Below are positions 47,176-52,119 of a DNA stretch of 64,000 nt, piece by piece (positions within the stretch are counted from its first letter, which is position 1; each line of letters begins with the position of its first letter). Made by a program: the position numbers and the translations under genes. The notes beneath the pieces are model-generated. The model was not told the DNA's origin. It saw only the letters and a program-made list of their open reading frames with translations, and made no database searches. This stretch comes from Clostridium sp. (GTDB lineage: Bacteria; Bacillota; Clostridia; Lachnospirales; Lachnospiraceae), in NCBI GenBank assembly GCA_023663615.1, contig JAMPHA010000001.1:153928-217927 (forward strand). The letters run 5' to 3'.

Positions 47176-47396
47176 TAGGGCAAGCAAACGAAAGGCGCGC
47201 ATTGCAGAAGATGAAGACAAAATAAAAGTGCGTGTTATAAGATAAATAAGAATGTTCAAACTTGCGTATTACAGAAAATTGTGTTATGATAAAAACCAAC
47301 AGGAGAGAAGCGGAAAAACAGATCGTTCTACAAAAACGGCGTATGGGATAATGCGTCATGATTTTGGATGCACAAAAGGCAGGGACGGGAGCCAAA

Positions 47397-48755
47397 ATGA
47401 TTTTTAAGAGGAAGATGTATGAAAAATTAGTACATTGGAAGACAGACACGAATGGCACGAAAGCATTGTTTGTCGAGGGCGCGCGGCGAATCGGAAAAAC
47501 CACGATCGTGGAAGAGTTTGCGCGGAAAGAATACAAAAGTTATATCATGATTGATTTTAATGACGCCAGTGAGAACGTGAAGGATGCTTTTTTGAACTAT
47601 CTGAGTGATCTGGATACTTTTTTTATGCTTTTATCCACAGAATACAAAACGGTGTTATATCCGCGGGAATCCATCCTGATCCTTGATGAAATACAGCAAT
47701 TTCCGAAAGCAAGACAGTCGATCAAGAGGCTGGTGAAGGACGGAAGGTTTGACTATGTGGAGACCGGCTCGCTGGTATCCATACGGGAAAATGTGCAAGA
47801 CATTACCATTCCTTCGGAAGAACGGAAGATCAAAATGTATCCGATGGATTTTGAGGAATTTTGCTGGGCGGTTGGGGAGGAAAAGCTGGCGCATTATATC
47901 AGAAAGTGCTTTGCGGACGGGGTGCCGCTTCCAGATCAGCTTCATCGGAAAGCGATGCTTCTTTACCGCCAGTATCTCGTTGTCGGCGGGATGCCGCAAA
48001 GTCTTGCCGCCTATTTGGAAAACGGCAGAAGTTTTCAGAGAGCGGATGAAGAAAAGAGAGATATTTTGGCATTGTATCGGGATGATATTATGAAGATCGA
48101 GGCAAAATATCAATCGAGGGTTTTAAGTATTTTCGATCAGATTCCGGCATTTTTGTCCCAGCATGAAAAACGGGTGGTTTTATCGGACATTGAGGCAGGC
48201 GCGTCCTTTGCCAAATTTCATGATGCGTTTTTCTGGCTGGACAATTCGATGATTGCAAATGAATGTTTTAACTGTACGGACCCGAATGTTGGTTTTTCCC
48301 TAAGTGAGGAAAGAACGTATCTGAAATGCTATATGGGGGATACCGGGCTGCTGATTAGTCATGCTTTTACGGAAGCAGAAATAGAGACGGAGGACTTGTA
48401 TCGTCAGATGATTTTAGGGCGCCTTTCGGTCAACGAGGGAATGATTTTTGAAAATGCGGTCATGCAGGCGTTGGTGTGTAATGGATATACGCCGTTTTTT
48501 TACACCCATTATGATGCGGAAAAGCATCGGAGTGATATAGAAATTGACTTTTTGATCTCGAATCGGAGCAAAACGAGGTATCGGATTCATCCGATTGAGG
48601 TAAAATCTTCTGAAAAGTACCGCATAACGTCGCTTAGAAAATTTTGTGATAAATTTGCGGAACGAATCGGGCAGGCGTACGTGATCCATACGAAAAATTA
48701 TTGCCGTAAGGATGATATTGTGTATCTTCCTGCTTATATGGCGATGTGTCTGTAA
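47397..48755 (+). CDS. AAA-family ATPase with C-terminal DUF4143 / PD-(D/E)xK-like domain
   Basis: Walker A GARRIGKTT and Walker B ILILDEIQ. The C-terminal DIEIDFLISN...IHPIEVKSS is a restriction-endonuclease-like D...ExK motif. GGGAG RBS before 47397. Confidence 0.75.
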   Translation: MIFKRKMYEKLVHWKTDTNGTKALFVEGARRIGKTTIVEEFARKEYKSYIMIDFNDASENVKDAFLNYLSDLDTFFMLLSTEYKTVLYPRESILILDEIQQFPKARQSIKRLVKDGRFDYVETGSLVSIRENVQDITIPSEERKIKMYPMDFEEFCWAVGEEKLAHYIRKCFADGVPLPDQLHRKAMLLYRQYLVVGGMPQSLAAYLENGRSFQRADEEKRDILALYRDDIMKIEAKYQSRVLSIFDQIPAFLSQHEKRVVLSDIEAGASFAKFHDAFFWLDNSMIANECFNCTDPNVGFSLSEERTYLKCYMGDTGLLISHAFTEAEIETEDLYRQMILGRLSVNEGMIFENAVMQALVCNGYTPFFYTHYDAEKHRSDIEIDFLISNRSKTRYRIHPIEVKSSEKYRITSLRKFCDKFAERIGQAYVIHTKNYCRKDDIVYLPAYMAMCL

Positions 48756-48837
48756 GAAAATAAGTCTGCAACCTAACCCAAGAAGAAATAGACTACATAG
48801 AATCGACAATCAAACCCATAGAGTAAGTAAAAAAAGG

Positions 48838-48883
48838 TTAGAACTGATTATGACTTACTGCAATAATCAGTTCTAATCTTTTT
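48838..48883. terminator. 14-bp perfect hairpin, bidirectional terminator-like
   Basis: TTAGAACTGATTAT (48838-48851) pairs with ATAATCAGTTCTAA (48863-48876) across an 11-nt loop. It is flanked by an A-run upstream and a T-run downstream. Confidence 0.6.
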
Positions 48884-49034
48884 GATATTCAATGATGTCA
48901 GTAATATCACAATTTAGCATGTTACAAAGGTCATTCAGGGTATTAAGAGTTATACTTCTATTGTGTTTGAGGTTATCAAGCATCCCTCTACTCATTTCAT
49001 ATTCATTCAAAAGGTCATATTGAGTAATTCCCAT
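48873..49034 (-). pseudogene. N-terminally truncated Cro/C1 (XRE)-type HTH remnant (53 codons)
   Basis: Hand translation gives MGITQYDLLNEYEMSRGMLDNLKHNRSITLNTLNDLCNMLNCDITDIIEYQKD*. This matches helices 2-5 of short XRE proteins, but the first ~15 residues are absent. A stop lies 9 codons upstream in frame and there is no RBS. Confidence 0.4.
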
Positions 49035-49359
49035 ACAACTAATGAAAAAGTAGAAAAGTTATATGAGATAATCCAAGACTAACATATAACCATAGATACA
49101 CTGTATGAAAAGATAAAGGACAGAGAACTTCGGTTAAATACAAAGTGATATTTCCCAAGCAAGGTTTAATAAGCTAAACTAAGAGGCACCTAGAAGTTAA
49201 AGGTGTCTTTTGGTTTGTTTGTCTCCTAAAGTAGGAATATTCATTTATTGTACATTTATAAACGGTGTCGGGTTCGGATAGTCAGTAGGTACAAATAAAC
49301 GAATTGAGAGTAAAAAAGGAAATCTCCATATAGATACAATAAAAAGTACAAAAACGTAC

Positions 49360-49388
49360 TTGACAATGTACATTTGTGAATGTACAAT
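49360..49388 (+). promoter_or_regulatory. consensus sigma-70/sigma-A promoter overlapped by TGTACA repeats
   Basis: TTGACA (49360-49365), exactly 17 nt, then TACAAT (49383-49388). ATGTACA occurs twice inside and adjacent (49366-49372, 49380-49386). Confidence 0.6.
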
Positions 49389-50450: not shown

Positions 50451-50487
50451 CTGCATATATGATCGCAAGTATATATCGCAGAAGAAT

Positions 50488-50970
50488 ATGAGTGAGGAAA
50501 TGGAATATATGAGAGAAGATCGGGTTTATCACGGCAGTAATCTGATTGTGGAGAAGCCGCGTGTCATGATAAATGGTCACTACAAGGATTTTGGGTATGG
50601 TTTTTATTGCACAAAATTGGAAAAGCAGGCAAAGCGGTGGGCATTAACGAAAAGAGGTGATTCGGTCGTGAATTGTTATGTTTATACGCCGAATGCCAGT
50701 CTGAAATATTGTGTTTTTGAACAAATGTCAGAAGAATGGCTGCAGTTTGTTGTTGATTGTAGAAGCGGTATGGAACATCCATATGATATTGTGGAAGGTC
50801 CGATGGCGGACGATCAGATATGGGATTATGTGGAAGATTTTATGGATGGTAATATTTCTAAGGAAGCATTTTGGGAATTGGTAAAATTCAAATATCCGAC
50901 CCATCAAATCGTTTTTTGCACGGAAGCCGCATTGCAGACCTTGCGTTTTGAAGGGAGTTCTATATTATGA
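50488..50970 (+). CDS. DUF3990-like protein (160 aa); possible H-Y-E ADP-ribosyltransferase fold
   Basis: RVYHGSNLIVEKP...DFGYGFYCTKLEKQAKRWA...IVEGPMADDQIWD...THQIVFCT matches my recollection of the DUF3990 family. The family call is from memory. Confidence 0.65.
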   Translation: MSEEMEYMREDRVYHGSNLIVEKPRVMINGHYKDFGYGFYCTKLEKQAKRWALTKRGDSVVNCYVYTPNASLKYCVFEQMSEEWLQFVVDCRSGMEHPYDIVEGPMADDQIWDYVEDFMDGNISKEAFWELVKFKYPTHQIVFCTEAALQTLRFEGSSIL

Positions 50971-51437
50971 AAAATCGGTATTTTGAAAATGAGGAGATTA
51001 TGCCGAACGATTTATTTTTTGTTTGCTATATGATTGAACGTGTTGCAAGAAAGCTGCATCAAAAAAATCAGTATGTTGTAAATACGATCGGCAGGGATGC
51101 GATGTATCATCTGCTCAGTGTCGCAAATGTCATTCATTCGCAGAACCCGTTGGATGTGGAAGACGACTGGGTGGAAGCATATGACCTTCATTACGGAGAT
51201 TTTGACAGGTGTGATGTGGATAAAGAATTAGTATCGAAGCTGCCGACGGCAGTGCAAATGGGAAAAGTTTATCAAAGGCTGATTAGGGATACCGCTTTGC
51301 AGAGTGAGGATGAGGTAGAAGGGATTTTCCGGGTTTACAATAGCGATATATGCAGCGTGATCGACAATTACAATTGCAGTGCATACTTTGAGCCATCTTA
51401 TGTGATCGCAAGGGCGTATCAGGAAGGCGGGTTTTAG
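50967..51437 (+). CDS. DUF3791-like protein (156 aa)
   Basis: LFFVCYMIERVARKLHQKNQYVVNTIGRDAMYHLLSVANVIHSQNPLDVEDDWVEAY resembles DUF3791, which commonly neighbours DUF3990. The ATG overlaps the DUF3990 stop (ATGA 50967-50970). Confidence 0.6.
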   Translation: MKNRYFENEEIMPNDLFFVCYMIERVARKLHQKNQYVVNTIGRDAMYHLLSVANVIHSQNPLDVEDDWVEAYDLHYGDFDRCDVDKELVSKLPTAVQMGKVYQRLIRDTALQSEDEVEGIFRVYNSDICSVIDNYNCSAYFEPSYVIARAYQEGGF

Positions 51438-51544
51438 ATTTGGTCCGGCTTTCTGATACGCCCTTACCGGCATTCTGCATATTTTGAGAGGGACATGCCG
51501 ATAAGACCTGCCCATGAAATTCTTTGGAATAGTCCATCCCCAGC

Positions 51545-52018
51545 CTAACTTATATATAATTTTATATACGACAGCATTTCGGCAATCCGCATAGTTTCCT
51601 CTACATACGCTAAATCATTATCTGCCATAATGACATCATCTAAAATAATACGGTACTGCATATCTTTTAATTCTGCATTATCCTTAAACCGGATTTTGGG
51701 AAATTCCGCAATTTCATGCTGCTTATTTACTTGTTGGATCAAACTATCCGGTTTTGACATATCAATGTAGGGGAGAATACCAACGCCAAATTCAAAAACA
51801 AAATGATTTACATCTTGAGCTTTGATAACAGAGTCAATCGTTACATTGAAAATAATAGAGATTTTTTCTAATATCTCTATATCCGGAACCGTTTCTCCGC
51901 ATTCCCATTTTGAAACAGCCTGCGGTGATACACCAGCCTGTTCTGCCAACTGCTGTTGCGTCCAACCTCTCCCTTTTCGTAATTTGATAAGATGCTTTCC
52001 CATTTTTTGCATATCCAT
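51545..52018 (-). CDS. XRE-family HTH regulator with C-terminal FlhA(FHIPEP)-linker-like segment
   Basis: N-terminal LRKGRGWTQQQLAEQAGVSPQAVSKWECGETVPDIEILEKISIIF (HTH_3). The C-terminal FVFEFGVGILPYID...FPKIRFKDNAELKDMQYRIILDDVIMADNDL resembles the conserved start of FlhA cytoplasmic domains. Confidence 0.8.
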   Translation of the reverse strand: MDMQKMGKHLIKLRKGRGWTQQQLAEQAGVSPQAVSKWECGETVPDIEILEKISIIFNVTIDSVIKAQDVNHFVFEFGVGILPYIDMSKPDSLIQQVNKQHEIAEFPKIRFKDNAELKDMQYRIILDDVIMADNDLAYVEETMRIAEMLSYIKLYIS

Positions 52019-52119
52019 AGTAATGCCTCCTTTTTCATTTGATGAAAAAATTATATCATCCGTTTTCAGTGCATACTATCAAATAGCAATTGATTTACAC
52101 AACGATTAGTTAAGCTGTC

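Follow-up and report, generated by a model that had tools for sequence, protein, structure and literature searches.

How does a block of AT-rich genes come to lie between two conserved chromosomal genes when it carries no recognisable integrase or transposase? The locus that raises this question is a 5,173-bp insert between the convergent genes spoVAC and araC in a stretch of 64,000 nucleotides, from here on the window, of a gut Lachnospiraceae chromosome (Clostridium sp., assembly GCA_023663615.1, contig JAMPHA010000001.1, positions 153,928–217,927). An earlier sequence-only reading had described it as an AT-rich island of horizontally acquired DNA, for example a defence or addiction island or a remnant of a plasmid or of an integrative and conjugative element (ICE). 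By comparison with loci of relatives and homologues (L numbers; P numbers denote proteins from public assemblies) we found that the insert is not one element but four or more modules stacked together, each of which also occurs separately. It probably represents a filled variable slot at the 3' end of spoVAC, in which low-GC cassettes arrived separately and carry candidate immunity cargo.

Composition and ends of the insert

The insert and the core genes on either side of it are:

46428–46946, + strand: spoVAC, left core flank outside the insert (Pfam SpoVAC_SpoVAEB, 1.4e-45)
46947–52119, no strand: entire insert (5,173 bp; GC 0.394), bounded by the stop codons of the convergent spoVAC and araC
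52120–52992, − strand: araC-family regulator, right core flank outside the insert (Pfam HTH_AraC, HTH_18 and AraC_binding)

A scan with SpoVAC, taking one genome per species, returned 80 loci, mostly from Lachnospiraceae and nearly all metagenome-assembled. Seven of them were close, with 92–99% amino acid identity in SpoVAC (L001–L007). The site is empty in L003, L004, L005 and L007, where the stop codons of spoVAC and araC lie 13–55 bp apart and araA stands beyond araC. Because four close relatives carry this empty junction, we set the insert at 46947–52119, and the ends proposed earlier, 47200 and 52110, had to be replaced. The true left end lies left of 47200, since the first 410 bp of the insert are GC-richer, non-coding DNA. 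On the right side, araC is 85–99% identical at the amino acid level and lies beside araA in L001, L003–L007 and L106, with a GC content of 0.46–0.47 in all of them.

The AT-richness was borne out by sliding-window and third-position GC. Against a GC of 0.394 in the insert, 195 windows of equal size that do not overlap it gave 0.526±0.009 with a minimum of 0.508 (z = -15.3). In a 500-bp profile the GC content drops from 0.50–0.55 to 0.31–0.46 across ~47000–52250, with the minimum of 0.31 at 48750–49250, and the remaining window stays at 0.47–0.58 in 2-kb windows. The interval 47200–52110 by itself has a GC of 0.386, the remainder to its left 0.527 and that to its right 0.521. Third-position GC was 0.29–0.50 for the six genes of the insert versus 0.56–0.73 for ten flanking genes. 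The three hand counts in the sequence-only reading were also exact (0.317 for 49381–49440, 0.333 for 51661–51720 and 0.583 for 45001–45060).

In the independent metagenome run X1 insert and flanks were covered at equal depth, ~23–24, and contigs spanned both junctions (44000–47028 and 49270–53564). Because of the equal read depth and the junction-crossing contigs we concluded that the insert is not an assembly artefact or a chimera.

When filled and empty junctions were compared base by base, no target duplication was seen. The earlier reading had proposed a search for flanking direct repeats; none was found that pairs the two ends of the insert, and the 64-kb window contains no tRNA or tmRNA. 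No integrase, recombinase or transposase was found inside or at the edge of 46947–52119, in agreement with the earlier reading, as all open reading frames (ORFs) of plausible size fall in other families. There is no room for an integrase, because the genes and the RNA motif leave gaps of just 100–390 bp. The insert is thus not a classical genomic island or integrative element.

Alternative fillings of the slot

From left to right the insert holds:

47013–47128, + strand: Clostridiales-1-like structured RNA or dispersed repeat at the left insert end, GC 0.60 (Rfam RF01699, 44.9 bits, E 1e-6)
47397–48755, + strand: candidate defence gene PDC-S01, an AAA_14 ATPase fused to DUF4143, 452 aa with the ATG at 47397 as start, in an ORF open from 47358
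48831–48883, no strand: inverted repeat between PDC-S01 and the HTH fragment, 21-nt arms, 95% complementary
48873–49034, − strand: 5'-truncated XRE-type gene (HTH_26), 53 aa (Pfam HTH_26, 1.7e-12)
49360–49388, + strand: predicted promoter of the ParA-like gene, TTGACA-17-TACAAT, 11/12 consensus match, the best sigma-70-like site in the region, with GTAC...GTAC operator-like repeats
49419–50450, + strand: orphan ParA-like ATPase, 343 aa (Pfam AAA_31 5.9e-20, CbiA)
50509–50970, + strand: DUF3990 protein (PDC-M10A), putative toxin, 153 aa (Pfam DUF3990 7e-51; PADLOC 7.3e-76)
50967–51437, + strand: 156-aa partner (PDC-M10B), putative antitoxin or immunity protein (PADLOC 1.7e-77 over 1–156/156)
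51410–51465, no strand: hairpin at the operon end, 21-nt arms, 90% complementary, with a terminator-like site at 51428–51447
51545–52018, − strand: XRE regulator, convergent with the ParA operon, 157 aa, HTH_3 and an unassigned C-terminal half (Pfam HTH_3 1.9e-16)

Five states of the space between spoVAC and araC occur within the genus. Besides the empty site, L006 holds DUF3990 and its partner only (PDC-M10), L106 and L107 hold the ParA-like gene, DUF3990 and the partner, and the window holds the full stack. PDC-S01, the HTH fragment, the RNA repeat and the XRE gene are missing from L106 and L006. The spacer of L006 is homologous to that of L106, including the ParA promoter, and is joined directly to the ribosome-binding region of DUF3990; only the ParA ORF is missing. 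As L006 lacks this ORF alone, the toxin–partner pair is viable without ParA.

In L001, the closest relative, whose flanks are ~95% identical, the interior has been replaced by a different gene of 274 aa. What remains of the stack there is the RNA repeat, ~20 codons from the start of PDC-S01, the XRE gene and the internally deleted 3' portion of the partner gene; the breakpoints fall within PDC-S01 and within the partner gene. The replacement gene (6932–7756 of L001) has a GC of 0.38 and no PADLOC or PHROG match; its sole Pfam likeness is a faint one to the AGOG N-glycosylase/DNA lyase family (E 0.038), and it could be another defence-type cassette. PDC-S01 is found alone directly after spoVAC in L002 (87% amino acid identity) and L049 (85%); in L049 spoVAC is just 72% identical. 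A gene of the PARG_cat_microb family (microbial poly(ADP-ribose) glycohydrolase type) lies at 5231–6070 of L106, two genes upstream of spoVAC; its closeness to the DUF3990 pair may be coincidence.

A division of the stack into (i) the RNA repeat with PDC-S01, (ii) the truncated HTH_26 gene, (iii) the orphan ParA-like ATPase with its own promoter and operator, (iv) the DUF3990 pair transcribed behind ParA and (v) the XRE regulator would fit these loci. Within the genus conserved core genes stand on both sides of variable content, which is one mark of a chromosomal defence hotspot. Elsewhere in Lachnospiraceae the gene right after spoVAC may be Lamassu LmuA/LmuB (L010), AAA-ATPase_like with PDDEXK_9 (L013), SLFN/AlbA_2 with HATPase_c_4 (L012, L021, L022), SIR2_2 with STAND (L036), another PDC-S01 subfamily (L014) or distant ones (L064, L066). 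Non-defence cargo occurs as well, such as MatE in L009.

The triad of ParA-like, DUF3990 and partner genes follows spoVAC in L106, which is of the same genus, and in the distant Lachnospiraceae L011 and L081–L083 (spoVAC ~66% amino acid identity), with differing right-hand neighbours. Nucleotide identity in ParA is 83–89% between the window and L106 and 75–82% to L011 and L081. Such values suggest that the ParA triad may be long resident at this locus and that part of the stack may have been inherited vertically rather than acquired recently. The sequence-only reading had named as the argument against acquisition that relatives carry the same genes at the same locus with native composition. 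We found the same genes at the same locus for the triad (L106, L011, L081), while their composition is not native, GC being low throughout. Of the claim of horizontal acquisition the accessory nature and the foreign composition were upheld by the four empty relatives; the single island was not, and the triad appears to be old at the locus.

We therefore weighed whether the locus is altogether old and native. The triad after spoVAC would then predate the divergence of these Lachnospiraceae, its low GC would be kept by selection, for example to limit toxin expression, and the empty sites would be secondary deletions. In addition to the occurrence in L106, L011 and L081, ParA nucleotide identity tracks that of the flanks, and the triad genes have a GC of 0.34–0.43 in every host (host GC 0.42–0.56). 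However, this explanation covers only part of the stack, as L106 and L006 lack four of its components. DUF3990 and the partner of the window are only 78–79% identical to those of L106 despite 95% in SpoVAC and 91% in ParA, and the pair is no closer to them than to those of unrelated hosts. Moreover, these genes are known from plasmids, from other phyla and from loci unrelated to this one, and the PDC-S01 of L049 is far more alike than its spoVAC. We consider a native origin very improbable. The drop in identity between the window and L106, from ~85–89% through ParA to ~75–78% after it, has no sharp edge; either the DUF3990–partner pair evolves much faster or it was swapped.

Candidate immunity genes of the stack

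The gene content given by the sequence-only reading (AAA/DUF4143, ParA-like, DUF3990, XRE) agreed with Pfam, and the PADLOC scan that it had proposed returned three strong matches, PDC-S01 (1e-106), PDC-M10A (7e-76) and PDC-M10B (2e-77). Its suggestion of a defence or addiction island was thereby supported in content; the genes are candidates only, in a layered stack.

PDC-S01 matched profile PDLC04792 over its full length (1.2e-106; residues 16–465 against profile positions 2–433/452), and Pfam placed AAA_14 (3.9e-23) and DUF4143 (2.4e-17) in it. Its motifs are intact (Walker A GARRIGKT, Walker B ILILDE, D...EVK). DUF4143 has been placed in the PD-(D/E)XK superfamily (PMC3424549), and PDC-S01, an ATPase–PD-(D/E)XK fusion, has been ranked the fourth commonest predicted system in prokaryotes, with validation pending (PMC12988326). 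Both PDC-S01 and PDC-M10 are 'guilt-by-embedding' predictions of Payne et al. (bioRxiv 10.1101/2024.01.29.577857). From its domains PDC-S01 would act as an ATP-driven PD-(D/E)XK nuclease.

The RNA repeat in front of PDC-S01 spans the full RF01699 model (1–166), and its 44.9 bits are below the gathering score of 48. A second copy at 35582–35695 is also full length and sub-threshold (39.6 bits, E 3e-5); both are without the optional 52-nt insert. L001 has the repeat at the corresponding position and L004, L035 and L052 have it at others, one copy in L035 also lying just after spoVAC; its depth in run X1 was ~8x. Each copy is directly preceded by TTTTTGCGCGATA[A/G]GC. On the other side of PDC-S01 the inverted repeat 48831–48883 is likely a bidirectional terminator, judging from its arms. 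The HTH_26 fragment beyond it covers profile positions 10–63 of 63, the first nine being missing, with an in-frame stop codon immediately upstream, so that its earlier description as a decayed XRE gene was apt. Neither the fragment nor the spacer 48756–49345 has a counterpart in any of the fetched loci, and the spacer gave no tblastx match.

We regard the ParA-like ATPase as the most promising lead of the locus. It has a deviant Walker A motif (KGGTGKT, residues 10–16), and its homologues are all 339–345 aa long with 70–91% identity, in Clostridia, Negativicutes and one Parcubacteria metagenome-assembled genome (MAG). No ParB or centromere partner lies beside it; the downstream gene is DUF3990, and at other loci it is solo, as in Phascolarctobacterium (L110) and the Parcubacteria MAG (L089). 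NCBIfam partition equivalogs scored 30–47 bits against cut-offs of 180–446, and this gene is not part of a ParABS system. PADLOC, NCBIfam and PHROGs returned generic P-loop/ParA matches only, and the closest solved structure is the uncharacterised 3pg5. In a scan of IMG/VR one match was obtained (52%, L116).

Upstream of ParA-like genes, both triad-type and solo, GTACTTGAC..GTACA is invariant across other genera and phyla, and in the window an inverted repeat spans 49244–49262 / 49373–49391. The ATPase is 62% identical to a gene in Salmonella phage-type records that carry cII, cro, cI and Q, and 32–34% identical to the genes immediately after cI in phages phi297 and ST11-VIM1phi8.2; a homologue stands right behind cI in three lambdoid phages. 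Because of this position next to cI, its conservation and the promoter that travels with it, we consider the ATPase a candidate lysogeny-expressed exclusion gene. That it is a new, widespread, single-gene module of phage exclusion or defence is a tentative proposal, which we put forward with considerable doubt. Within the operon of the window its tasks might include detection of infection or control of the ART-fold toxin encoded next. We found no papers on ParA-like anti-phage proteins in a literature search, and the protein is listed in none of the defence catalogues that were searched here.

Two sets of records show the ATPase in other company. In L113 (6118–11032) the ParA-like gene (81% identity) is followed by HD-CE, HATPase_c_3/GHKL and GmrSD_N genes, and in L114 HD-CE and HATPase_c_3 are fused in one 852-aa protein behind the ParA-like homologue; here another set of defence-type neighbours follows the ATPase. 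L103 (CP148862.1 and ~15 similar 5.87-kb 'plasmids' of Salmonella Infantis) consists of circles of a lambdoid immunity region with cII, cro-like, cI-like, ParA-like and antitermination genes that match Salmonella phage S.Inf 5-2. By their gene content these records give the impression of circles derived from phage or products of assembly, not of ordinary plasmids.

The XRE regulator gave PHROG repressor matches and 63 bits to an NCBIfam RstR-type phage repressor, below the cut-off of 80. It is 97% conserved in L001 despite the replaced genes to its left. The hairpin 51410–51465 at the operon end is likely a terminator, as its arms and the terminator-like site suggest. A role of the XRE protein as antitoxin of an Xre–RES-like system was ruled out, as its gene is convergent with the operon and is lacking in L106 and L006, where the pair is retained. 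Its HTH domain is ~50% identical to that of an HTH_3 protein encoded upstream of the solo ParA-like gene in L084–L088 (5447–5794, Clostridium phoceensis type), and despite its different position the XRE protein could be the regulator that belongs to the ParA promoter.

Regulators and ATPases of this kind could also be the maintenance and immunity leftovers of a single decayed mobile element (prophage, ICE or integrative and mobilisable element, integrated plasmid) from which the integrase and the transfer or structural genes have disappeared. Consistent with this, ParA-like homologues adjoin cI in lambdoid phages and stand in L084–L086 beside an HTH gene, with tyrosine integrases and a MobL relaxase; the XRE protein resembles phage repressors; one regulator gene is truncated; and L001 shows a gene fragment and an internal deletion. 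However, the insert contains neither genes nor gene fragments for replication, transfer, packaging or structure, its unassigned gaps are short, and the spacer 48756–49345 is without tblastx match. Neither att-like direct repeats nor a tRNA were found, and the PHROGs gave no match for PDC-M10. Single, cleanly bounded modules at the slot, as in L006, L106, L002 and L049, are not expected from decay. We therefore regard a decayed single element as quite unlikely, and the earlier suggestion of a plasmid or ICE remnant was abandoned, as single cassettes stand alone in relatives.

Behind the ParA-like gene, the start of the 156-aa partner overlaps the stop of DUF3990 by 4 bp (ATGA) on the same strand, and the two genes are translationally coupled. 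Both are full-length PADLOC matches, adjacent and on one strand, as defined for PDC-M10; a literature text search found no paper that uses this term. DUF3990 is listed in the Pfam ADP-ribosyl (ART) clan (PMC7955679) and makes up the C-terminal tip of Rhs5, a type VI effector of Serratia, with a predicted cognate immunity gene directly downstream (PMC4524185). The AlphaFold2 (AF2) model of DUF3990 (pLDDT 86.5, pTM 0.80) supports the ART fold, as 17 of its 18 top matches in the Protein Data Bank (PDB) by Foldseek were ART-fold proteins. The RES NADase toxin of the P. putida Xre–RES system (9r35/6gw6) came first (probability 1.0), followed by exotoxin A, PARP1, cholix and diphtheria toxins. H8 (YHGS), Y33 (GFYCT) and E96 (VEGPMADD) are invariant in 34 sequences, an alignment that is shallow (≥ 71% identity), and lie on the predicted strands 5–10, 32–35 and 94–99. 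Their placing suggests an active site of the H-Y-E type. A PDB sequence search with DUF3990 and the partner gave nothing meaningful.

The two genes were together in every context examined. In L092–L102 they stand as a pair between housekeeping genes, and they also occur as a natural full-length fusion (P0407, 307 aa) and as a fusion with partial DUF3990 (P0477, 224 aa). The partner family comprises ~720 clusters at 50% identity. The earlier reading had taken the three genes for a ParA-like/DUF3990/DUF3791 operon, of which the first two assignments stand. The DUF3791 label can be kept only in a remote sense, since the partner has no Pfam match even at E≤10, and its alignment by hhalign to two proteins annotated as DUF3791 had a probability <2%. 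Divergent members of the partner family have sub-threshold DUF3791 (PF12668) matches in the N-terminal 60 residues (22.2 and 16.4 bits against a cut-off of 25), a transitive link by which the N-terminus may be remotely DUF3791-like. More distant systems have DUF3791 and a further small protein as neighbours of DUF3990. From the ART-fold matches, the H/Y/E residues, the Rhs tip, the gene overlap and the natural fusion, we read the pair as a putative ART-fold toxin with its antitoxin or immunity protein, the latter putatively all-helical.

Two small, co-transcribed, always-paired genes have the layout expected of a type II toxin–antitoxin system. The cargo might accordingly be selfish: a self-stabilising toxin–antitoxin pair, orphan ATPases and regulators without a role in immunity, whose loss is costly or neutral. 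Overlap, constant pairing and natural fusion speak for this, as do the plasmids of Clostridium, Bacteroides and Moraxella on which DUF3990 is found, the predicted status of the PDC systems and the MatE gene at the slot in L009. Against it, the pair has been lost cleanly in close relatives with empty sites, so that addiction is not strong. PDC-S01, Lamassu, SIR2–STAND and SLFN-type genes recur at the slot; one distant DUF3990 system is embedded within a type I restriction-modification (RM) operon in Moraxella; and the ParA-like gene lies in the lysogeny-expressed cI operon of phages. Such settings are typical of immunity genes. We think plain addiction or junk cargo unlikely.

Proposed explanation and known systems

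A slot filled by separately arrived cassettes thus remains the reading that we favour. Turnover would take place by homologous recombination in conserved flanks or shared cassettes after DNA uptake, a route that we propose because no recombinase is present and because of the slot haplotypes; illegitimate deletion and replacement, as in L001 and L006, would contribute. The DUF3990 protein would be an NAD+-consuming or ADP-ribosylating toxin that its partner keeps inactive and infection releases, resulting in abortive infection, or in plain addiction. The ParA-like protein would serve as an exclusion or defence ATPase in a 'rex'-type position, autoregulated at the GTAC operator. As judged from the gene families, the cargo is candidate anti-phage or anti-mobile-element immunity. 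Less likely, the 3' end of spoVAC would be a landing site that is specifically targeted and puts immunity genes under read-through in the forespore.

Several results weigh against the proposal of a slot with separately arrived immunity cassettes. The PDC systems are predictions only (bioRxiv 10.1101/2024.01.29.577857; PMC12988326). The Foldseek scores of DUF3990 are weak (best E 1.3e-3, TM 0.47–0.50, about 0.48), and the AF2 model of the partner is unusable (pLDDT 44). ParA and the flanks diverge in step across the window, L106, L011 and L081, and there is no recombination tract at the 3' end of spoVAC, where cassette carriers and non-carriers share one identity profile. The sequence was detected in two DNA-type sequencing runs and in zero RNA runs. 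Finally, when the genes 3' and 5' of spoVAC were compared at 79 loci (PADLOC E≤1e-10, Fisher's test), 12/79 matched on the 3' side versus 5/79 on the 5' side (p = 0.06), the loci being phylogenetically dependent. Four of the five upstream matches are generic Csa3-like regulators. Without the generic Csa3 and MzaA matches the counts were 9 (3') versus 1 (5'; p = 0.009), mostly of candidate systems. We regard the enrichment of defence genes 3' of spoVAC as suggestive, not rigorous.

A second difference in presence and absence was observed on the 5' side of spoVAC (43173–46400), where the window and L001 share a MerR regulator and a two-gene ABC transporter (43781–46312). Unlike the AT-rich insert this block has the native GC of 0.51–0.52. 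In L003 arsR and spoVAC lie ~100 bp apart, and L002, L004 and L106 have other genes there.

The locus is a well-documented and fairly ordinary accessory hotspot. Its value is that of a base-resolved case of defence-type cassettes turning over at a fixed slot without a recognisable mobile element in gut Lachnospiraceae, a group in which we know of almost no experimental work on phage defence. It nominates three compact candidates (PDC-S01, the H-Y-E-type ART toxin pair and the ParA-like ATPase) and offers natural 'knock-outs': the pair stable without ParA (L006), ParA without the pair (L110) and the pair fused (P0407). Should all three candidates fail to protect against phage, no more than an accessory or addiction slot would be left.

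How do the genes compare with known systems? By sequence those of the window belong to the PADLOC candidates PDC-S01 and PDC-M10, which they match in domain make-up, with strong full-length matches to the profiles, and for PDC-M10 in the same two-gene, single-strand order. They differ from the published candidates in that they are not embedded in RM, BREX or DISARM systems. The M10 pair of the window lies behind a ParA-like gene that is outside the PADLOC definition and dispensable (L006; L092–L102).

Xre–RES, DarT–DarG and ParT–ParS also consist of a small ART-fold protein and a tightly linked small partner, on plasmids or in variable chromosomal regions. Compared with Xre–RES, the Pfam family is DUF3990 and not RES, and the residues are H-Y-E-like and not R-E-S. 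Unlike in the Xre–RES-type layout, the partner in the window follows the toxin rather than preceding it, and it has no detectable HTH or macrodomain.

The partition ATPases ParA, Soj and MinD share the deviant Walker A motif and the AAA_31/CbiA/ParA profile matches with the protein of the window. The latter is ~90 aa longer at the C-terminus and lacks a ParB or centromere partner; in L110 its gene forms an insert of its own, with housekeeping genes on both sides, and it also occurs in a CPR bacterium (L089). Like the exclusion genes rexA and rexB in the cI operon of lambda, the ParA-like homologues of phages are positioned directly downstream of cI. The ATPase has no relation to RexA or RexB in sequence or fold, and here it is chromosomal, outside a prophage and under its own promoter; a function of the rex type is putative.

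In E. coli, defence cargo at hotspots is reported to lie 'almost always' on recognisable mobile elements (PMC10121019). The slot at spoVAC differs from these hotspots in having no such element. To our knowledge, neither a spoVAC anchor nor a gut Lachnospiraceae host is known from a described defence hotspot. Pseudomonas aeruginosa has integrase-free 'core defence hotspots' that are flanked by core genes. With these the spoVAC slot shares the fixed position between core genes, the variable content of defence type, the low GC and the lack of mobility genes.

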